Notes under the pieces: model-generated
Told to the model about the DNA's origin: nothing
Database searches by the model: none
What the model saw: only the letters and a program-made list of their open reading frames with translations
Made by a program: the position numbers and the translations under genes
In this document: positions 2,048 through 37,015 of the stretch, piece by piece
Position numbering within the stretch: the stretch's first letter is position 1
Layout: each line of letters opens with the position of its first letter
DNA from: a virus
DNA length: 39,780 nucleotides
Direction: 5' to 3' (one strand)
UHGV virus genome: UHGV-1378608

Positions 2048-4792
2048 TTAACCTTTAGAAAAAACAGACAGTAACGGAAGTGTAAAAGTCGACACACCAG
2101 TATTCATCATGCAGGTTTTACCACCTGAGTATCCAGATATGGTTTGCGAAACTGGACTTCCTGTTGTTGGGAAAATGGTGATTTCATCCCCCCCCTTCAA
2201 TACTCTAACTTTGCCTGTAACATCAACCGATGAACTTGAAACAGACGTGAGAGATCCATTGGTCATTGTATAAAAGTTTATAGTTCCTGTTGCTGTTCTG
2301 CTTACACCACATCCTGATTTTTGCTTCTGTTTATAGTTAAACAATACCAGCAGGCCAACAGGCATTGACTCAAGCTCAACTGCTGTAGACTGGTAGGTCT
2401 TACTGCCGTTTCTCATGTCAGGAGCCTCATCATCTGGATCAGAAAAATTATACCCAAGAGTTAAATCATTAACCGTGGCATTATTCCCTGTTATTCCTTT
2501 GACTTGATTAACACTTAACGGTATGTAATTAAACCCTGCAAAAAGCGGTGTTAACTTTTCTCTAAATAAAAGGCCTGGTGGGTATACTAACGAAGGTGTA
2601 CCATCATATGTCACTGAGATAATATTAAGTCCCTTTTTAAGGGTTCCAATGCACGTTGTTTGTTTGCCTGTAAATGATGTTAGCCCATTGCTGGCAACTT
2701 TACCTGATAGATAAGAAGAGTTCCTGATGTCATTGAGAATGACATTGAACTGGTTAACACGATCTGATGAAGTATAAGTTGGGTTATATGGCTCAAATAA
2801 TGTTACAGAGATATCGCTTGTATCACTCCATACAAAATACCGACAAATAACATTTTCATTTGAAGGCGTAATCCTTCCCCATCCACCAAGTGCATCAAGA
2901 TAATCACCTCCACTTAATATCGAAATTGATGGGTAGTATCTGGTATTTGAAGGGTATCCAATACCAATAAATGAAAGTTGCGTAGTAGGGATTAGGTTCT
3001 TATTTTTTACAGCTGTATAAACGCGCTCTTTTAATACCTCTTTTGCAGCATAAGCACCGATGTATGCATGTCCTATCGTTGATGGATGGCTCTGGTCAAA
3101 GACAGTACCGCCGTCACGTTTGGCAACATCAGATATAGAGTACGCGCCTATATCTGCATAAGCGTCAGTCGTGGCAATGGACAAATCCAAAAACTCGACC
3201 TTTGGGAAAAGGCGTTCGATACGCTTCTTAATGGCTGACTCCAGGAAAGCCTTTGGCGCATCGTTATTGTTTACAGTAACAAAGCATATCGGACAACCAT
3301 ATCCCCATGATTTTCTAATCAACTTTTCAAACTCATGAAAATACGCTTCAAATCCTATTGTTGGAAGTATTCCATTGTCATTAAAACCAAGGCTTATAAA
3401 AAGAACATCAGGAGCTTTTTTTCCATACGCAGCATTCTGGAAAAATCCATAGTCGAAGTTTTCATAACCCCAACCTGTCGCAAGTGACTTGCCAGACGAT
3501 CCGCAGTTATATGCTTTAAAAATATTATCCGTGCTGTCGGATAGCATATTGAGGCAATCAGTAAAAATTCTGAACCATGAATGCTTACCGCCATTTAAAT
3601 TATGATTGTAGTTGGTAGAGTTAAGATTTCCATCGCTACCAGTCGGGTTCGGGGTCCATCCTGAACTATAGGCTCCATCCGTTATAGAATCACCAATGAT
3701 ACCTACATGGCAATCTTCTACAGTTGATGGGTAACCCTGCTTATTTGCAAATTTAGCAATTGTTCCAAGAGCAGTAAAATCAGGGCCATTGTTAGATAGC
3801 CCAACATCAAAAACATGCTCATTACCCCATTTGTCTCTTGTGAGAATTTTACCTTCTCCAAGAAATTTAGTCACATCATCTGACGGTAAAAAATTACACC
3901 TGATGGTTACATCTTTTGGGATGTAAATCTGACCAGGGAAAGCATAAATTGCACTTCTGTTGTCAGTTGTCGTGTTAATAACGACATTTGGAACATAAAA
4001 TATTGACGTTGCGTCAGTTCTATATTGTCCGTTAACAAGCTCAGATCTGAGAACCGCATCCCCAACACCTCTCCAAGCGCCAGGACCAACACCACCAGTA
4101 GTGGTAGGAGTTGATCCTGGAGGAACTACTTTGGGCAGTGGCCCGTCCCATCTGTAGTATTCGCCGTTGCTTTCCCAGAGAAGAACATCGTTAAGATAGA
4201 TGATGGTATTACCCAACTCAAAAGATTTCTTCGTGTTATAGCCATACAATCCATTTTCTAAGGTTTCAATAATGGTGCTAAGTATGGTACTAAATTTTGC
4301 ATAAAGATCATCAGTATATTTTTTTGTAGCAGCATCTTGGGGAAGAGATGGATCACGAAGATTTCTAATATAATTTGAAAGCGCGTCATAAAAAATTGCT
4401 ACGTCATTTGGCTTTCTTAAAGCCAACTTATCATTTCTTAATGATTGTTGAATGAGCATAGTAAGTTTATCAAACGCATCCTCATGTACCTCAGCGAAGA
4501 ACTTACCCTGATTACGTAAATCCGTTTCCTGAGTAGCTGGTAGTTCTCGTGATATAGATATCTGATGACCGTTAGCCAACGCCTTCGAGAGAATTACATT
4601 ACCGCCGTTATATCCTCCAGCCCCGGTAACTGTGTAATCAGTATCAAGAGCCAGCACAGCGATATTTTCGTCAAGGTCAACCACCTGTACTACCAGATCA
4701 GATTTATTGAAAACCCTAAAGGTGTACGGAAATGATGTCGTAACGCCGTTACCTGTGTATTCGTTGTGGTCAACTTCGGTTGAGACCGTCAT
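2048..4792 (-). CDS. Tailspike/tail fibre protein with internal SGNH(GDSL)-type esterase domain
   Basis: 914 aa; N-terminal ~120 aa resembles the conserved podovirus tail-fibre anchor domain (NEYTGNGVTTSFPYTF...TDYTVT...AEVHEDAFDKLTMLIQ); residues ~360-585 carry SGNH blocks GIIGDSITDG, FISLGFNDNG and DQSHPS (Ser and Asp/His of catalytic triad). Confidence 0.8.
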   Translation of the reverse strand: MTVSTEVDHNEYTGNGVTTSFPYTFRVFNKSDLVVQVVDLDENIAVLALDTDYTVTGAGGYNGGNVILSKALANGHQISISRELPATQETDLRNQGKFFAEVHEDAFDKLTMLIQQSLRNDKLALRKPNDVAIFYDALSNYIRNLRDPSLPQDAATKKYTDDLYAKFSTILSTIIETLENGLYGYNTKKSFELGNTIIYLNDVLLWESNGEYYRWDGPLPKVVPPGSTPTTTGGVGPGAWRGVGDAVLRSELVNGQYRTDATSIFYVPNVVINTTTDNRSAIYAFPGQIYIPKDVTIRCNFLPSDDVTKFLGEGKILTRDKWGNEHVFDVGLSNNGPDFTALGTIAKFANKQGYPSTVEDCHVGIIGDSITDGAYSSGWTPNPTGSDGNLNSTNYNHNLNGGKHSWFRIFTDCLNMLSDSTDNIFKAYNCGSSGKSLATGWGYENFDYGFFQNAAYGKKAPDVLFISLGFNDNGILPTIGFEAYFHEFEKLIRKSWGYGCPICFVTVNNNDAPKAFLESAIKKRIERLFPKVEFLDLSIATTDAYADIGAYSISDVAKRDGGTVFDQSHPSTIGHAYIGAYAAKEVLKERVYTAVKNKNLIPTTQLSFIGIGYPSNTRYYPSISILSGGDYLDALGGWGRITPSNENVICRYFVWSDTSDISVTLFEPYNPTYTSSDRVNQFNVILNDIRNSSYLSGKVASNGLTSFTGKQTTCIGTLKKGLNIISVTYDGTPSLVYPPGLLFREKLTPLFAGFNYIPLSVNQVKGITGNNATVNDLTLGYNFSDPDDEAPDMRNGSKTYQSTAVELESMPVGLLVLFNYKQKQKSGCGVSRTATGTINFYTMTNGSLTSVSSSSVDVTGKVRVLKGGDEITIFPTTGSPVSQTISGYSGGKTCMMNTGVSTFTLPLLSVFSKG

Positions 4793-4896
4793 GTTAAATC
4801 TCCAGATAGTCGCAGCACCCGTTGCGCCGCATATCTGGTTATTCTATTACCAGAAAAACCATATATGGATATATAGCTCATGAATACGAACAGATA

Positions 4897-5252: not shown

Positions 5253-5268
5253 GGCCGCGAAAGCGGCC
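5253..5268. other. GNRA-tetraloop hairpin ggccgc-gaaa-gcggcc
   Basis: 6-bp perfect stem with GAAA loop just 3' of the LexA-controlled gene and 1 nt before the 12-bp palindrome; no strong T-run on either strand. Confidence 0.4.
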
Positions 5269-5269
5269 T

Positions 5270-5281
5270 GTGACATGTCAC
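5270..5281. repeat. Perfect 12-bp palindrome GTGACATGTCAC (copy 1 of 3; 14-bp TGTGACATGTCACA here)
   Basis: Exact palindrome recurring at 22503-22514 and 25578-25589, each in an intergenic position. Confidence 0.6.
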
Positions 5282-19227: not shown

Positions 19228-19520
19228 TCCTGTTCACTGGCCTCTTTGGCCATCTTCAAATACTGTTCAGGGCAATGCGCCATAACGCGCTGAAACAGTT
19301 CCAGCGCCAGATTGCGTTGCCCCTCATTAAATGCCATTGCCATAGCGTCCATCGGCGAGATAGCGGAAAACACACGGCCTTTCTCCAGTACCGACCAGAC
19401 AACCCGACGCCCCTGTTCACAGCTCATGACAAAGCGAATGTCATCAATTTCACGCTGTGCCATGTCACGTTGCTTACGGGCGTTTTCTTCTTTCAGTTGA
19501 TCGTCTTCGTAATCTGTCAT
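19224..19520 (-). CDS. Hypothetical head protein (98 aa)
   Basis: Translationally coupled between portal and scaffold genes. Confidence 0.4.
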   Translation of the reverse strand: MTDYEDDQLKEENARKQRDMAQREIDDIRFVMSCEQGRRVVWSVLEKGRVFSAISPMDAMAMAFNEGQRNLALELFQRVMAHCPEQYLKMAKEASEQE

Positions 19521-21417: not shown

Positions 21418-21507
21418 ATCAATGACTCCGTACGCAATTAAATTATTACCAATTTAACCATATATGATTTATTTATCGTAGGTAGTTGACATTTAACGCA
21501 CAAATTA

Positions 21508-22120: not shown

Positions 22121-22498
22121 ATGAACGACCAGCAAATCGAAAAAGAAATCATTGAGAAAGGCAAAACGGCACCGCGAATCACCCCGCAGCACATCGAAGA
22201 CGTGATTATTAGTGAGCACTATTTCACGGCTGCAGAAGGGGTTCATGGCGCTAATGAGCTTTTAAAACCGCATGAAAGCCCAATTGACTATTACCAGGAA
22301 GCGCACCCTGCTGAGTCACTTCTGACCTTCTGCGTTCTGGTGCTGCGCAACGGATTTACTGTAACCGGAGAAAGCGCCTGTGCAAGCCATGAAAACTTTG
22401 ATGCAGAAATTGGTCGGAAGATTGCCCGGCAGAATGCTGTAAACAAAATCTGGATGCTCGAAGGTTACTTGCTGAAGCAGAAGCTAAGCGAGCAATAA
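22121..22498 (+). CDS. Gp49-like phage protein (125 aa), moron
   Basis: Motifs ITPQHIEDVI, HYFTAAEGV and FTVTGESACASHENFDAEIGRKIAR match my recollection of the phage Gp49/66 family; RBS aaggtgag. Confidence 0.55.
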   Translation: MNDQQIEKEIIEKGKTAPRITPQHIEDVIISEHYFTAAEGVHGANELLKPHESPIDYYQEAHPAESLLTFCVLVLRNGFTVTGESACASHENFDAEIGRKIARQNAVNKIWMLEGYLLKQKLSEQ

Positions 22499-22502
22499 CA
22501 CC

Positions 22503-22514
22503 GTGACATGTCAC
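22503..22514. repeat. Perfect 12-bp palindrome GTGACATGTCAC (copy 2 of 3)
   Basis: Exact repeat of the palindrome at 5270 and 25578; 5 bp after the stop of the Gp49-like gene. Confidence 0.6.
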
Positions 22515-22612
22515 AAACAGCCGGCCGATGAGCTGGCTTTGTTTTATCCTCATCAGAGGATATCAACGACATTATCCCCTCATAGGGATACGTTTTTCAT
22601 AATGACCGAAGA

Positions 22613-22657: not shown

Positions 22658-23398
22658 ATGCTTGAATCACTTAAAGAATACCTATCTTCAACCGTTAATA
22701 CCGCTGCGCAAAGGGTCAGAAATCCAGTGTTTGGAGCGTTCGCACTGTCATGGTGCGCCTTTAACTGGAAGTCGATTTTATACTTACTCCTCAGCGACTC
22801 CAGCATCATCGACAAGATCACCTACATTTCCAGCAATAGCAGTTGGAAAACGGTATTAGCATTCCCATGTGTTTCAGCAATAATCCTGTGCGGCGGCATG
22901 CCCTGGATCAACAACGTGATTTCAAAGTGGCAAGCCAAACCTCTTGATAATTACGATTCGATAGAGAACCACCGGAAGGCCAAGCGCATTCATCGCGCCA
23001 CACGCCTGCAGCGCCTGAAGGCAAAGCACGATGTGACATACGACAAAGTTAAGACTGGCGCCGAAAAGGACATACAGGCTATGAAGGAAAGAATTACGGA
23101 GTCACAGGCCAGGATGGGTGAGCTAACGTCGGAAAGAGATAGGCTCTCCGATAAGGTTTTGGAATTGAATAAGAAGCTGGAAAACATGCAATCAGTGGCT
23201 GCAGCGTTAAAGATTGAGGCAGAAAAGTCCGCCAGAATGCTTGAAGATAGGGAGGCCAAAATAAATAATCTCATACAAGAATTAAAGGAAAAAGAAAAGG
23301 AAAGTATCGTATTGCATATGGGCCATGAACCCTTGCGAAAAACATATACATCACAGGCTGAGAGAATGATTGCTGAAGCCGTGAAAAATAAGCAATAA
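22658..23398 (+). CDS. Membrane-anchored coiled-coil protein (246 aa), moron of unknown function
   Basis: N-terminal hydrophobic segments, then a long charged heptad-like region; visibly AT-rich coding sequence; opposite strand to flanking late genes. Confidence 0.5.
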   Translation: MLESLKEYLSSTVNTAAQRVRNPVFGAFALSWCAFNWKSILYLLLSDSSIIDKITYISSNSSWKTVLAFPCVSAIILCGGMPWINNVISKWQAKPLDNYDSIENHRKAKRIHRATRLQRLKAKHDVTYDKVKTGAEKDIQAMKERITESQARMGELTSERDRLSDKVLELNKKLENMQSVAAALKIEAEKSARMLEDREAKINNLIQELKEKEKESIVLHMGHEPLRKTYTSQAERMIAEAVKNKQ

Positions 23399-23399
23399 A

Positions 23400-24875
23400 T
23401 CACGCAAACGGGTCGTAATCTGTGATGGCCTTGCCTTGCTGGTTCTGCTGACCGGGAATTCGCAGGCGCTTCGACACAGGGAAAGCAAACGTCAGCAATA
23501 GCGCATCGCCTTTCCCCGGCGAACGCCCAAGTCGTTCTTTGATATCTTCCTTCGGTTCGATAACGATTTTACCGTCCACGCGAACTTTGTACTCTGCCGT
23601 CGACAGGTCGTCCGCTGTTTCCTGGTCATCCAGCATACCGCCCAGCCTCAGCCATGTCTTACATGAGTTGAACATCTCCCCACGCTTGTTGAGCATCTGC
23701 GGGTCAGTAGACGCGCCACCGAACGGAACAAGTTGCCATGTCCTGCCCCAGCCGTCACCGATGGACTTCAGCCCGGTGCCGTAACCGAAGTCGATGAACA
23801 CCGCGTCAGCCTGGTACTGGTCTTCAAAGTCGGCGATTCGCTTAGCCATAATCAAATCGTCGGTGGTCTTGTTGCCGGTCCAGAGCACTTTGCTGTGCAG
23901 CCCCTGCCGCAGGTATATCACCGCGTCATCAACTCCGGAATACGCCGGGTCGACGCCGATAATCACAGGAGCGTGAGCAACCTGCCCGGCGGTAACCACC
24001 CGCTTCATGGCCTCGTCTGTAAGGCCTGTTGGGATAAACTGGAGTTCTGACGCGTCAGGGAAGATCCCCCGCACGCGGACCTTCACGAAGTCGCTGTCTT
24101 CCCCGTAGTCATCAACCCATTTCTGCAACTGCTGTTTGTTAGTGCCTTCCACCGTCCGGCTGTCAATCTGCGCAGTTTTCCAGCGGTGTTTATATTTGCG
24201 GAAACATTCGCGGAAACGCCCGGTATTACGCGTCGGGTTCCCGAACGCCACCCAGATGATTTCGGTGTCTTCGTCCGTAAGCGCACCCTCAGCAACTTCC
24301 CACACCAGATCCGCAATGTTCGACGCTTCATCGAATACCACGATGATGCGTTTGCGCTCGTTGTGTAGTCCGGCGAATGCCTCAGTGTTGTGCTCAGACC
24401 AGGGTATTGCGTCAGCCCGCCACCGCTTGTCGTGCCCAGGATCATTGCTGTACATCGCGGTAGCGGTACAGGTAAACCAGTCTTTCGTGATGGCAAGGTT
24501 CGACCACTTGATAATTTCCGGCCAGGTCTTCGTTCGTAGCTGGTTGTCGGTGTTGGCGGTCACCACGACCTTACAATCCTCGCAAGTGGACATGCCCCAG
24601 TTGATCAGCATTGAGATGAATGCGGATTTACCAATACCGTGACCAGAAGCGCGTGCCAGCATAAGCGGCTGATAGCGCGTCTCTGGATTCTGCAGGTGAT
24701 CACGTATCTCTCGGAACGCATCGGCCTGCCACTGACGTGGACCGGTGGCATGTGCCAGTTCAGTACCCTCTTCCCCCCACGGGAACGCATAGAGGGCATA
24801 GCCAAGCGGATCGTGAGTGAACCCTGCAATATCCTCGATCAACTGCTCTTCAGGAGATAACGCTGTATCTGTCAC
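23400..24875 (-). CDS. Terminase large subunit
   Basis: 491 aa; Walker A-like LARASGHGIGKS, ATPase N-half and nuclease C-half with conserved acidic residues; follows small subunit with overlap. Confidence 0.85.
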   Translation of the reverse strand: MTDTALSPEEQLIEDIAGFTHDPLGYALYAFPWGEEGTELAHATGPRQWQADAFREIRDHLQNPETRYQPLMLARASGHGIGKSAFISMLINWGMSTCEDCKVVVTANTDNQLRTKTWPEIIKWSNLAITKDWFTCTATAMYSNDPGHDKRWRADAIPWSEHNTEAFAGLHNERKRIIVVFDEASNIADLVWEVAEGALTDEDTEIIWVAFGNPTRNTGRFRECFRKYKHRWKTAQIDSRTVEGTNKQQLQKWVDDYGEDSDFVKVRVRGIFPDASELQFIPTGLTDEAMKRVVTAGQVAHAPVIIGVDPAYSGVDDAVIYLRQGLHSKVLWTGNKTTDDLIMAKRIADFEDQYQADAVFIDFGYGTGLKSIGDGWGRTWQLVPFGGASTDPQMLNKRGEMFNSCKTWLRLGGMLDDQETADDLSTAEYKVRVDGKIVIEPKEDIKERLGRSPGKGDALLLTFAFPVSKRLRIPGQQNQQGKAITDYDPFA

Positions 24876-25468
24876 TGATTACCATCCTGACGTTCTTTGA
24901 GTCGCTTCCTGGCTGCTGCTATGCGATCAGCAATTGTCACATTCACATTAACATCCAGGCGTTCTTTGAATGCGTTGACGTCGACGTGCTTACCAATCAG
25001 TTCTAGGTTCTTCACCTTGTCAGGCCATTTAATTTTTTTGAGGATTGTCTCTATCGAGTCCTCGTTCATGTTCATGATGGTCGATGACAGATCAAAGCCG
25101 CTAAGCGTAGTGCGCCATATTTTCGGCCACTCGCGGATTGGCTTAAGACTCCCATCGTCGTTGAGGATATCAATCACGTCCATCTGGTCGATCTCCACCA
25201 GGCGCATGAGAACGTAATCAGCACTGACGCGCATTCGTTTGTTGCGCTCCTCCATCAACTCGGCAATCCGTTTTTTAATGCGTTCATCACGCATCATGAC
25301 ACTGGCTTTAACTGCCGCTGTATTTGGGGAGAATCCTGCGTTAATCGCTGCCTGAGTCTGGTTTTCAGGCGTTTTGATGTATGACTGGCAATAAGCCTCC
25401 TGCATTGCTGTTAGTGGCTTAAATTGCGTTGATTTGCGTTTATAGGTTTTAGGTTCAGCAGACATCAT
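24872..25468 (-). CDS. Terminase small subunit
   Basis: Likely start at MMSAEP (25468) with GGTGG RBS; the ORF-track N-terminal extension to 25546 runs through a terminator hairpin and direct repeats and is probably not coding. Confidence 0.7.
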   Translation of the reverse strand: MMSAEPKTYKRKSTQFKPLTAMQEAYCQSYIKTPENQTQAAINAGFSPNTAAVKASVMMRDERIKKRIAELMEERNKRMRVSADYVLMRLVEIDQMDVIDILNDDGSLKPIREWPKIWRTTLSGFDLSSTIMNMNEDSIETILKKIKWPDKVKNLELIGKHVDVNAFKERLDVNVNVTIADRIAAARKRLKERQDGNQ

Positions 25469-25475
25469 AACCACC

Positions 25476-25509
25476 GTGGTAATAGTTACCGTTGTGGTAA
25501 TAGTACCAT
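25476..25509 (-). promoter_or_regulatory. Tandem direct repeats GTGGTAATAGT(T)ACC x2 immediately upstream of the terminase small subunit (candidate late promoter/activator site)
   Basis: Two adjacent copies, each also an inverted arrangement GGTAA-TAG-TTACC, between the terminator and the TerS start. Confidence 0.35.
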
Positions 25510-25510
25510 G

Positions 25511-25537
25511 CAAAATAAAGCCGCCATAGTTGGCGGC
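25511..25537 (-). terminator. Rho-independent terminator separating the early-left operon from the packaging genes (minus strand)
   Basis: Stem gccgcca/tggcggc with 4-nt loop, followed on the minus strand by TTTATTTTG. Confidence 0.55.
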
Positions 25538-25577
25538 AGTATTCAAAACCCATCAAATTCATCATGCATAATCTAAT

Positions 25578-25589
25578 CGTGACATGTCA
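25578..25589. repeat. Perfect 12-bp palindrome GTGACATGTCAC (copy 3 of 3)
   Basis: Overlaps the stop codon of the 113-aa Cys-rich gene, about 110 bp upstream of the TerS start. Confidence 0.6.
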
Positions 25590-25928
25590 CACTATTAATT
25601 TCGTTTCATGCCAGCCTTTAGTCACCCAGCATTGCAAGTCACCATTACACGGACATGAATTAACTGGAACTCTCTCGCCGCACTTACCGCAACATTTTCT
25701 GCTGATCGATTTTATACGCCCGCGCACGCGTGCATCATCCTGGCGGATCAGTAACGCTATATACTCACCAAATTCGTAAGGCGCACGCCCGGGGCGACGC
25801 GTGGCACAGTTACGCTCCAGCATTTCAATTTCCTGAGCATCAAGCACAATTTCCAGCTTACGCACACCAGATGCAGCTTGTCTGGCTCTCTGAGCGGCTT
25901 TGCGCTCTGCTGCTGATTTAGCCATCAA
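25587..25928 (-). CDS. Cys-rich (zinc-ribbon-like) basic protein, 113 aa; candidate late-gene regulator
   Basis: Basic helical N-half and C-terminal CCGKCGERVPVNSCPCNGDLQC; last gene before the late operon. Confidence 0.4.
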   Translation of the reverse strand: MMAKSAAERKAAQRARQAASGVRKLEIVLDAQEIEMLERNCATRRPGRAPYEFGEYIALLIRQDDARVRGRIKSISRKCCGKCGERVPVNSCPCNGDLQCWVTKGWHETKLIV

Positions 25929-29848: not shown

Positions 29849-29851
29849 GAT

Positions 29852-31578: not shown

Positions 31579-31842
31579 TCAGCTTGAATGTTGTGGGGAG
31601 GAATTAATCATGATCTGCTTAATCTCTGCCCTGATACGACGGTTTGATTCCATGGTGCACTCAACACAGTGTCCGTTGTAAACCCAGCGTTCACTGTCAT
31701 GTCCGTGCTTACATGTTTTTCCGGTGTAGTAGCGTTTAAGTCCGCGCTTTGCGGCATCAATACGTGTAATGATTTCCATGGTAAGCCCTGCTATTAGTAT
31801 TGGGATTACGGTCATTTTGTGCTGACACAAAAAAAAGATCAA
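31579..31842 (-). CDS. Small zinc-ribbon protein in CII-equivalent position
   Basis: TCKHGHDSERWVYNGHCVEC motif; first gene after the Cro-like gene and terminator; start uncertain (31842, 31815 or 31779). Confidence 0.4.
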   Translation of the reverse strand: MIFFLCQHKMTVIPILIAGLTMEIITRIDAAKRGLKRYYTGKTCKHGHDSERWVYNGHCVECTMESNRRIRAEIKQIMINSSPQHSS

Positions 31843-31859
31843 CCAGATTTGGTTTTTTA

Positions 31860-32314: not shown

Positions 32315-32899
32315 ATGAAAAGTATCCAGGACGTCCGCAGGCAAAATCTCAACGACTTGATCGACCGTGAATTCAATGGTGTTCAGACGCGGATGGCAGA
32401 AAAACTTGGAACTCAGGCAAATCTGGTAAACCGCTGGGCTCTTGGCAAGAAGGTTATCGGCGACCAGGTTGCGCGAAAAATTGAAGCTGCCGCCAATAAA
32501 CCACGTAACTGGCTTGATATCGATCGCTCGCTTTCTCAGGAAGGTTTTCAGCCTGTCGGCCCGAGCGATATAGGTCAGCTGGCGGCTCACAACCTGGAAC
32601 GCTGGATGAGCGAAAGCCGCGACCTTTCAACACAGGGAAAACTTCACCGCGCATCCGGCGTCGCCCAGGTGACAATCAGCCGCCTGTTAAACAATGAAGT
32701 CAGCGTTTCCATTTCCACCCTGGAGAATGTTGCATCCGCATTCGGGCGTCACGGCTATGAATTACTGATTCACCCGCACGACCCTGCGACTATCAACTAT
32801 GATCGCTCGCGCTACGCATTGTTACCTGAAACAGAGAAGGCAAAGATCGAAAGTTACATTGAATTTGTCATCAACCAGAACGAAAAAAGCAAACAATAA
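32315..32899 (+). CDS. Phage repressor candidate, tandem XRE-type HTH, no recognisable S24 peptidase domain
   Basis: 194 aa; two HTH-like segments (VQTRMAEKLGTQANLVNRW and GVAQVTISRLLNNEVSVSISTLENVASAF); transcribed from the OR-like region toward the OL-like region, as lambda cI is. Confidence 0.55.
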   Translation: MKSIQDVRRQNLNDLIDREFNGVQTRMAEKLGTQANLVNRWALGKKVIGDQVARKIEAAANKPRNWLDIDRSLSQEGFQPVGPSDIGQLAAHNLERWMSESRDLSTQGKLHRASGVAQVTISRLLNNEVSVSISTLENVASAFGRHGYELLIHPHDPATINYDRSRYALLPETEKAKIESYIEFVINQNEKSKQ

Positions 32900-34246: not shown

Positions 34247-34552
34247 GTGGGTATGAACGTTAATCAGCAGAAAAATCTTCAAAAAATCATGCTGGCATTC
34301 GACAAGGACTACCGTCTGTCAGAACAGCTATATGACCGACAAGTTGAACTGATTGAGAGTATCCGGCTTCATCAACTGGCATCAACTTTCGACGTTGTAA
34401 CAGTTAAAGGCGTTCGCCAGGAAGTACTGGAGGCCGCTAAAGACAGCCCTGAGTTCGAAGAACTAATGGATGCCTACCGGCGCGAGGCAATGGCAATTAT
34501 CGCCCGCTGGGATCTGGCTGATCAGCTTGATGGGCAGAGGGACGCGGCATGA
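34247..34552 (+). CDS. Hypothetical protein (101 aa)
   Basis: Translationally coupled ORF between the coiled-coil gene and the exonuclease. Confidence 0.45.
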   Translation: MGMNVNQQKNLQKIMLAFDKDYRLSEQLYDRQVELIESIRLHQLASTFDVVTVKGVRQEVLEAAKDSPEFEELMDAYRREAMAIIARWDLADQLDGQRDAA

Positions 34553-36357: not shown

Positions 36358-36606
36358 ATGAAAGGTGCATTAGGTAAGAAGGAACTCCTGGCGGTGGTGC
36401 CACTGTCATGGAGCACTATCGACCGTATGGAGCGCGCAGGTGAATTTCCTAAACGCTGGTATATCACTGACAAACGCTGCGCATGGAACCGTGACGAAGT
36501 TGAGCGTTGGCTTGATGAACGTCAGGCAGCAAGCCCGGCAGAGTTCCAGGGTAAAAAGCCTCCTGTTCAGCAACGTGTATATCGTCCTGTGAGCAACGCT
36601 GCATGA
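36358..36606 (+). CDS. AlpA-family DNA-binding protein, candidate excisionase
   Basis: 82 aa; pattern STIDRMERAGEFPKRWYITDKRCAWNRDEVERWL resembles AlpA/Xis-like regulators. Confidence 0.55.
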   Translation: MKGALGKKELLAVVPLSWSTIDRMERAGEFPKRWYITDKRCAWNRDEVERWLDERQAASPAEFQGKKPPVQQRVYRPVSNAA

Positions 36607-36715: not shown

Positions 36716-37015
36716 GTGAGAAAGTTAAGCCGACTTGAAAAATATCACATGAACAAGGTTTCAATGCGCAGCCCTTCAAAGATTGTCGCCGTTACTCCTG
36801 CGGCGATAGAGATCGAAAAACGCGCGATTGAAAGAGAGAAAAAAGGGCAATTCCGCATTGCCGCTCACCTTTGGCTTCAGTGTATGGATGTTGCTTCTGG
36901 TGATGTTGAACGTGCAAGGATCGCGGTTCGCAGGGACCAATGTATCACAAAAGGTAACGGCCTTCGCCGTGGCGACTATAGCGGCATAGGATGTTGTGGG
37001 GTGGTTTATGACTAA
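36716..37015 (+). CDS. Hypothetical protein (start uncertain)
   Basis: ORF immediately upstream of the methyltransferase; no family recognised. Confidence 0.35.
   Translation: MRKLSRLEKYHMNKVSMRSPSKIVAVTPAAIEIEKRAIEREKKGQFRIAAHLWLQCMDVASGDVERARIAVRRDQCITKGNGLRRGDYSGIGCCGVVYD

Follow-up and report, generated by a model that had tools for sequence, protein, structure and literature searches.

A composite regulatory junction upstream of terS in an epsilon15/phiV10-like prophage and the linkage of its gp49-family gene to a 12 bp palindrome

The virus genome UHGV-1378608 (39,780 nt, analysed over its whole length and referred to here as the window) carries, directly upstream of the terminase gene terS, a gene for a Cys-rich basic protein, a palindrome, an intrinsic terminator and two tandem repeats, which the original prediction had taken together as a candidate late-control region. 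All of these elements were confirmed and go beyond what chance would give, and the presence of a regulatory junction in front of terS was likewise borne out. The junction is genuine and composite, and its parts have different owners: we assign the repeats to the immunity repressor, the hairpin to ordinary operon-end termination and the palindrome to the Cys-rich protein. The main new result is that the gene for the Cys-rich protein and the palindrome (GTGAC-NN-GTCAC, hereafter P) form a cassette that is undescribed as far as the searchable literature shows, where searches with the palindrome strings found no relevant paper. Gene and site travel jointly through unrelated phages, so that P is most likely the protein's own binding site. 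To the overall reading of the junction, namely this cassette followed by a terminator and by repressor operators over the start of terS, we give a probability of about 0.6.

Genomic context of the junction

The 1.5 kb around the locus displayed 93–98 % identity to Uetakevirus Escherichia phages (O157 typing phages 9 and 10, PAS61, ZX5, TL-2011b and phiV10), and the window is an epsilon15/phiV10-like temperate podophage (Uetakevirus) prophage, presented in the reverse orientation to the phiV10 record. In phiV10, a leftward repressor gene is followed by rightward cro-like and replication genes, DUF1064, eae/ea22-like, ASCH and gp55, and then by terS, terL, the structural genes, tail spike, lysis genes and int. 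The 113 amino acid open reading frame (ORF) of the window is the counterpart of phiV10 gp55, epsilon15 gp49 and N15 gp46, and we refer to it by the epsilon15 name as the gp49-family gene. It is the final member of the operon bearing cro and the replication genes, and the locus is the junction between this early operon and the terminase/packaging operon. Earlier described as the last early-left gene, it is indeed the last of the early operon, but in lambda terms that operon is early-right, though it runs leftward in the window. To our knowledge, it has not been worked out how late genes are switched on in epsilon15/phiV10-like phages, and the published account of ZX5 does not treat the gp49-family gene. 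Some phages of this kind serve as reporter or typing phages for E. coli O157 and Salmonella.

Linkage of palindrome P to the gp49-family gene

P overlaps the TGA stop codon of the gp49-family gene (25589–25587), and the window holds three perfect copies of it, compared with a shuffling expectation of 0.085 at up to one mismatch. The gene and the copies are located as follows.

25587–25925, minus strand: gp49-family gene (112 amino acids from ATG 25925; alternative start TTG 25928, 113 amino acids), with a predicted basic helix, ribbon-helix-helix, zinc knuckle and C-terminal helix
25579–25590, strandless: P, GTGACATGTCAC (GTGAC-NN-GTCAC), on the TGA stop of the gp49-family gene and probably the cognate site of its product
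22503–22514, strandless: second perfect P, 4 nt after the stop of the ORF at 22121–22498 (plus strand) and 4 nt before the hairpin at 22519–22538
5270–5281, strandless: third perfect P, between the end of the structural operon (9 nt from the stop of its last gene) and the hairpin at 5268–5253 (1 nt away)

Read in the local gene direction, all three copies display the same order of a stop codon, 0–9 nt, P, 1–41 nt and a terminator hairpin, which suggests action at transcription-unit ends. P was identified at all three corresponding positions in epsilon15 and at the two internal positions in phiV10 and Tyrion, in both of which the copy at the end of the gp49-family gene spans the junction of record end and start and was thus invisible to the scan. 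A counterpart of the copy at 5270 was also present in BUCT711. Separately, a copy with one mismatch (GTGCCATGTCAC) was seen at 19457–19468 inside a small ORF after the portal gene, and is conserved with the same mismatch in phiV10 (5306, other strand).

The association between gene and site extends well beyond the Uetakeviruses. P was found at the 3′ end of distant homologues (35–65 % identity) with unrelated neighbouring genes, lying on the stop codon in N15, BUCT554, 65FD and AH07 and 2 nt past it in ZF40. Among 35 distant IMG/VR loci, retrieved with three distant family members, 27 carried P within 60 nt of the stop, where about 1e-4 would be expected per locus. In every genome examined the sites were 12 bp long and of the form GTGAC-NN-GTCAC. 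One clade has P within the ORF, where it encodes V-T-G-H; the 10 specified bases were invariant in the 20 loci with a perfect P, flanking synonymous positions varied and the sole change within the site was at the unspecified centre, with one further locus carrying a one-mismatch copy. Family variants devoid of the zinc knuckle described below still end in P. Sequence similarity among relatives ends 2–3 nt past P, and it is exactly there that morons have been inserted. Invariant half-sites around a free centre are the signature of a dimeric DNA-binder, and as the gene is the sole element common to all of these loci, its product is the protein that probably binds P.

P occurs in few copies per genome: three each in N15 and K308, four in BUCT711, two in AH07 and three to four in the Uetakeviruses. 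One of the K308 copies lies 20 nt upstream of the terS ATG. The N15 copies (28550, 33237 (L130) and 5267 (L004)) are situated after gene 33 and before a terminator, inside repA and on the gp46 stop, and share the form GTGAC-TG/CA-GTCAC with a common central dinucleotide. AH07 has a perfect GTGACATGTCAC at 34430–34441 within the gene annotated as an antitermination protein, remote from the gp49 homologue. Copies inside ORFs indicate that placement at operon ends is not a general rule.

An unnamed protein family that includes the long-sequenced N15 gp46 is thus welded to a specific 12 bp site. A probable binding site that sits on the stop codon of its own gene, is kept within coding sequence and recurs at operon ends would be an unusual regulatory arrangement, and the pairing offers a simple hypothesis for a gene widely annotated as 'hypothetical' or 'transcriptional regulator'.

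Features and distribution of the gp49-family protein

Relatives have the ATG at 25925 annotated as the start, which makes the gene run over the stop of ASCH, its upstream neighbour, with an overlap of 8 nt. The encoded protein is basic (isoelectric point 9.5; 22 Lys and Arg versus 13 Asp and Glu) and contains seven Cys residues, six of them within residues 78–99. It matched PHROG 536 ('transcriptional regulator') with an E value of 1e-53; no Pfam or NCBIfam family was found, apart from a sub-threshold NCBIfam match to a LexA-regulated protein (E 0.053). The family is small: of 1.84 billion cluster representatives searched, only 153 clusters matched.

Conservation was assessed in an alignment of 52 diverse family members. 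The original prediction held that a Cys cluster not shared by homologues would count as its refutation, but the cluster is conserved: two residues (C79 and C82) are invariant, C99 occurs in at least 90 % of the sequences and the fourth Cys is found near positions 90–92, giving a spacing of C-X2-C-X8-10-C-X6-8-C, although some family members have no zinc knuckle. Within the basic helix at the N-terminus, R8 never varies and R13 rarely does. The AlphaFold2 model built from this alignment was a confident one (mean predicted local distance difference test score, pLDDT, 89.6); it comprised helices at 5–19, 30–42, 52–75 and 100–108 and a knuckle at 78–99, and contained a ribbon-helix-helix (RHH) core of beta-strand, helix and helix. 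The protein is therefore a predicted DNA-binding regulator with an RHH domain and a four-Cys zinc knuckle. A zinc-ribbon fold had been suggested as a structural check; the predicted fold is RHH, followed by the knuckle.

Structure and profile searches gave little further resolution. Foldseek comparison of the model with the PDB returned nothing significant, a BFVD search matched only a fragment of the gp49-family protein itself, and curated RHH families gave sub-threshold matches only (RHH_5, RepB-RCR_reg and RHH_1, in one or two of the 52 members). The top matches of a PDB profile search were YbiI and TraR, which carry DksA/TraR-type zinc fingers, but these were weak (E 0.075–0.094). We did not adopt a kinship with TraR/DksA, as the profile matches were confirmed neither by Pfam across the 52 members nor by Foldseek; the spacing in those proteins is C-X2-C-X17-C-X2-C, whereas the second knuckle of the gp49 family has a single Cys. 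Longer family members, considered for hints from fusion partners, yielded no informative domains and look like mis-called ORFs. As in the RHH regulators Arc, Mnt, CopG, omega, TacA and AmrZ, a predicted beta-alpha-alpha core follows a basic segment and a short palindrome is associated with the gene. Unlike them, the gp49 family adds a C-terminal four-Cys knuckle, the associated site is at the 3′ end of the gene and not in a promoter, and there are extra copies in the genome.

Family members were found in podo-, sipho- and myoviruses, among phages of Escherichia, Salmonella, Klebsiella, Yersinia, Vibrio and Aeromonas. N15 gp46 belongs to the early-right operon of a phage annotated with its own late activator or Q-like protein, gp40. 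Gp22 of Pectobacterium phage ZF40 is encoded between a methyltransferase gene and NinB, and ZF40 also has a Q-like gp25. In Pantoea phage AH07, an unrelated myovirus, a leftward operon carries the homologue as its last gene but one, beside xis and int, and the annotated antitermination gene (gene 52) is at another place in the genome. In a P2-like Yersinia phage (Peduoviridae) the homologue follows gpA, in the Vibrio siphovirus K308 it ends an early operon, and two metagenomic clades have it a few genes ahead of the endolysin gene. The homologues in N15, ZF40, AH07 and the P2-like Yersinia phage are far from the terminase genes. In these arrangements the family is typically encoded by a distal early gene, is not tied to terminase genes and coexists with annotated antiterminators.

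Terminator and probable repressor operators upstream of terS

Between the cassette and the packaging operon lie the following features, listed with the first genes of that operon and with the repressor gene to which we link two of the features.

25543–25569, minus strand: moron ORF remnant, MHDEFDGF and stop (8 codons), between P and the terminator
25511–25537, minus strand: intrinsic terminator closing the cro/replication (early) operon; a terminator is annotated in epsilon15 and phiV10
25500–25508, minus strand: candidate extended −10, TGgTACTAT, of a putative terS promoter; its last two bases are the first two of O1
25485–25501, strandless: operator O1, ATTACCACAACGGTAAC (minus strand), one mismatch to ATTACC-N5-GGTAAT
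25467–25483, strandless: operator O2, ATTACCACGGTGGTTAT (minus strand), one mismatch, 18 bp from O1
24872–25465, minus strand: terS (Terminase_2), first gene of the packaging operon (Pfam PF03592, E 1.2e-29; PHROG 51; annotation of relatives)
23400–24875, minus strand: terL, next after terS
32315–32899, plus strand: prophage repressor Rep, presumed binder of O1 and O2 (HTH_3), with operators on both sides of the gene

The terminator consists of a 7 bp stem (six GC pairs; 25537–25520) with a 4 nt loop, followed by TTTATTTTG, and is kept in epsilon15, Tyrion and 65FD. The 41 nt stretch containing it folds at −16.2 kcal/mol, and it dominates the RNA fold of the intergenic region (z-score −2.8).

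The tandem GTGGTAATAGT repeats at 25476–86 and 25494–504 have a period of 18 bp and are parts of the two 17 bp palindromes O1 and O2. O2 covers the terS Shine–Dalgarno sequence GGTGG (25475–25471) and ends 2 nt before the ATG at 25465. The repeats had been proposed as part of a candidate late-control region, but the motif is not private to it: ATTACC-N5-GGTAAT occurs at 15 sites in the window at up to two mismatches, versus 0.88 expected, and in an unbiased palindrome scan it was among the most frequent palindromes in the window, phiV10, epsilon15, Tyrion and BUCT711. Sites were found on both sides of the repressor gene (32244, 32956 and 33018) and after the replication genes (29851 and 29913); others precede the portal operon (21507), the tail spike (4896) and terS. 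The analysis indicates that each late transcription unit carries repressor operators. All Uetakeviruses compared share one operator motif. The epsilon15 RefSeq record annotates seven sites as 'protein_bind: repressor, lysogeny', one of them at 12–27 immediately upstream of terS, and the sequences of these sites give the consensus ATTACC-N5-GGTAAT; the assignment of the repeats to the repressor was thus already present in database annotation. The 18 bp register of O1 and O2 is also present in epsilon15 and Tyrion, where the second site has two mismatches.

The Rep protein of the window is a full-length homologue of SPC32H Rep (PDB 5D50; E 3.5e-42), which is described as a tetramer that binds palindromic sites (PMC9638917). 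Tetramer binding to palindromes fits the paired operators, and on the combined sequence evidence the repeats are very likely Rep operators; as such they no longer constitute evidence for a dedicated late activator. Compared with the Rep/Ant operators of epsilon15 and SPC32H, the window has the same 17 bp palindrome, shared positions including the one upstream of terS and a homologous repressor, and nothing essential differs; its terS site is a clear tandem pair at 18 bp that covers the ribosome-binding site. Mycobacteriophage L5 offers a second comparison, its stoperators being, reportedly, scattered repressor sites that silence transcription in the lysogen. Many dispersed sites, including some before late genes and just after a terminator, are common to both systems, but those of L5 are asymmetric and orientation-dependent, whereas the window sites are palindromic and several lie over recognizable −10 elements, for which reason they look like ordinary promoter operators.

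Elsewhere in the window, the promoters of the leftward operon and of the site at 29851 each have a −35/−10 pair ending at or just before the ATTACC half-site. The 29851 operator covers the DUF1064 ribosome-binding site much as O2 covers that of terS, and the −10-like hexamer of the 29851 promoter overlaps the operator, as does the element at terS. Two pairs of operators are exactly 62 bp apart (29851–29867/29913–29929 and 32956–32972/33018–33034), the downstream copy overlapping the −10 in each case, and this spacing would fit Rep tetramer binding with looping.

The likeliest start of terS is the ATG at 25465 (197 amino acids), as annotated in TL-2011b. In phiV10 the gene is annotated from a TTG 81 nt upstream (224 amino acids; phiV10 41–715; window 25466–25546), but the resulting ORF would span the terminator and both operators, and this start is probably mis-called. 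The candidate extended −10 of terS is kept as TGnTAYTAT in epsilon15 (TGTTACTAT), Tyrion and BUCT711 (TGGTATTAT). The repeats abut the start codon, reaching to within 2 nt of the ATG, a position that rules them out as an activator site upstream of a terS promoter.

A second palindrome, approximately ACCATATATGGT, was observed six times versus 1.2 expected, including copies at 4858–4869, 21457–21468, 1971–1982 and 31842–31853. At the portal, tail-spike and lysis units it follows the Rep operators by about 40–50 nt and stands just ahead of a TGGTAATA-like extended −10, but terS has no upstream copy. This palindrome may be the real late-promoter element.

Proposed mechanism and alternative explanations

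From the sequence features, their over-representation and conservation, the linkage of gene and P and the predicted fold, we infer which protein binds which site and the direction in which transcription would be affected. Early transcription would be ended by the strong intrinsic terminator. Bound at P, the gp49-family protein would act at transcription-unit ends, where it would form a roadblock or gate or else modulate read-through: a bound dimer might stall polymerase and so impose an autogenous limit on its own mRNA and on downstream read-through, or might alternatively modify termination, and we do not expect it to work by promoter activation. In the lysogen, a Rep tetramer on O1 and O2 would hold terS–terL off directly, and once Rep is inactivated, transcription of terS would come from a weak promoter of its own, from terminator read-through, or from both.

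Several observations weigh against this scheme. P could be bound by another factor, as its half-sites equal those of matS, and one clade has P inside the ORF without a nearby terminator, whilst some copies in BUCT711, N15 and AH07 lie inside unrelated genes. The putative terS promoter has no −35, its place being occupied by the terminator, and a promoter dedicated to terS may not exist. The second operator, O2, is degenerate in BUCT711, which keeps O1 and TGnTAYTAT only, and the 'repressor' sites of epsilon15 may themselves be computational predictions. Finally, the protein occupies exactly the lambda Q position in the Uetakeviruses, for which no other late regulator has been identified, so that a positive role is conceivable.

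A more general version of the scheme, in which the gp49/N15-gp46 family and P would constitute a portable transcription 'gate' that blocks polymerase or, via the zinc module, makes it termination-resistant, is speculative and, as we judge it, unlikely. The product of an early operon's final gene would then bind on the stop codon of that gene and at a few further operon ends beside terminators. If true, the timing of packaging and structural genes in the Q-less epsilon15 and phiV10 would be set by such a gate.

The original prediction pointed to a late activator or antiterminator. In such a model the Cys-rich protein would bind P, which contains the −35-like hexamer GTGACA, to allow read-through into terS and likewise at the other two pairs of P and terminator. 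Several observations agree with it: the early operon ends with this gene, right in front of terS, P precedes the hairpin at all three copies, homologues are usually late in early operons and a few genes before lysis or late genes, and the weak matches to the RNA polymerase-binding TraR/YbiI zinc-finger family (E ~0.08) could be read in its favour. The earlier statement that no Q-like protein is evident also held, with none found in a Pfam scan of ten selected ORFs of the window or in the phiV10 and epsilon15 annotations. A promoter-like arrangement of GTGACA, 17 or 18 nt and a −10-like hexamer can moreover be read over P, as a weak sigma70-like GTGACA-18-CATGAT (9/12) in the window and, by eye, as GTGACA-17-TAAATT in epsilon15. 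We rejected this promoter as a conserved feature, since a 186 bp insertion parts the hexamers in 25 of 79 close relatives and a transcript from it would stop in the terminator after about 40 nt.

Against the antiterminator model, no Q-family Pfam model matched the protein or the 52 family members at E≤1, Pfam scans found no resemblance to Ogr/Delta or Mor/C, and the predicted RHH fold is unlike that of Q or Ogr. Homologues occur alongside annotated Q-like proteins in N15, ZF40 and AH07, in the last of these from a leftward operon by xis and int. At the copy after terL the hairpin precedes P for transcription of the late strand, the promoter-like spacing is lost in the relatives with the insertion, and some family members have no zinc knuckle, the link to TraR being unbacked by Pfam or Foldseek. 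P2 Ogr and P4 Delta have a C-X2-C-X22-C-X4-C spacing that differs from that of the gp49 family, which has no Pfam match to them. The likeness to the PR′-qut-tR′ arrangement of lambda Q, 21Q, 82Q and AlpA lies in a last early gene placed directly before the late genes and in a DNA site followed by an intrinsic terminator, and lambda Q also has a zinc finger (PMC9371919). There is no similarity in sequence or fold, however, nor was a conserved promoter or sigma-dependent pause element identified at P. Q combines an N-terminal ring-forming segment with a C-terminal helix-turn-helix (PMC9371919), which the predicted fold of the gp49-family protein does not match. A late-activator or antiterminator role is thus disfavoured by family, fold, site geometry and distribution alike, and we regard it as improbable.

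A further possibility is that P is a matS-like site for host MatP or a phage analogue, and that it organizes or tethers DNA instead of regulating transcription. MatP is likewise an RHH protein, the GTGAC/GTCAC half-sites are identical to those of matS, P occurs as a few dispersed copies per genome, and the range of hosts from Escherichia to Aeromonas overlaps that of MatP. The matS consensus is reportedly the 13 bp GTGACRNYGTCAC, with a spacer of 3 bp and not the 2 bp of the 12 bp P. An hhalign comparison with E. coli MatP, using a sequence verified against PDB 4D8J, gave a probability of 0.4 %, and neither MatP domain (PF06303 or PF17414) was found in the 52 members, which display no detectable homology, four-helix bundle or coiled coil of the MatP kind; a database search with MatP returned near-identical sequences only and was of no use for building a profile. 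A host factor would also leave the tight link of P to the stop codon of one phage gene unexplained, and we consider this explanation quite improbable. Least likely of all is that the repeats are a pac (pacL-like) packaging site bound by TerS, as in SPP1 with a TerS of the same Pfam family: TerS is indeed a Terminase_2 protein, the repeats are immediately upstream of its gene and several related phage records start near here, but a pac site would be unique, whereas the 17 bp palindrome occurs at 15 places including both flanks of the repressor gene and positions upstream of early genes, and the record starts follow annotation convention, the phiV10 record, whose last base is the end of gp55, having a conventional end and not a mapped DNA end.

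Insertions and neighbouring genes

The interval between P and terS is variable in related phages. The 8-codon remnant in the window has an intact counterpart of 70 amino acids (PHROG 1541, function not assigned) on the 186 bp insertion, which lies right after P. In BUCT554 (L091 ~2790–3190) and BUCT711 (L132 34–430), a umuD-like gene has been inserted between P and terS. It carries a promoter of its own (TTGACT/TATACT) and a LexA box without mismatch, CTGT-N8-ACAG. The region from P to the terminator (25513–25598, minus strand) gave a match to the Rfam model of rseX, an Hfq-binding small RNA, which scored 28.5 bits against a gathering threshold of 50 (E ~0.1–0.2); the match covers the full model length but is probably driven by the terminator, and we did not retain it as a known RNA.

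The other early operon encodes an AlpA/Xis-family protein (36358–36606, plus strand) and a PerC-family 'transcriptional activator' (36716–37015, plus strand; PF06069, E 6e-7; PHROG 868); the latter is another candidate for the role of late-gene activator. In P. aeruginosa, the antiterminator AlpA has a 21Q-like fold (PMC9371919). It is a larger protein with no obvious relationship to the 82 amino acid 'AlpA family' protein encoded in the window, and on that description the latter was not adopted as a Q-like factor. Beyond terL, two plus-strand ORFs converge on that gene: 22658–23398 (PHROG 4780; 246 amino acids, with a coiled-coil look by eye) and 22121–22498 (PHROG 322). The former is absent at the corresponding place in phiV10, which marks this region as a variable moron site with a copy of P at its boundary.

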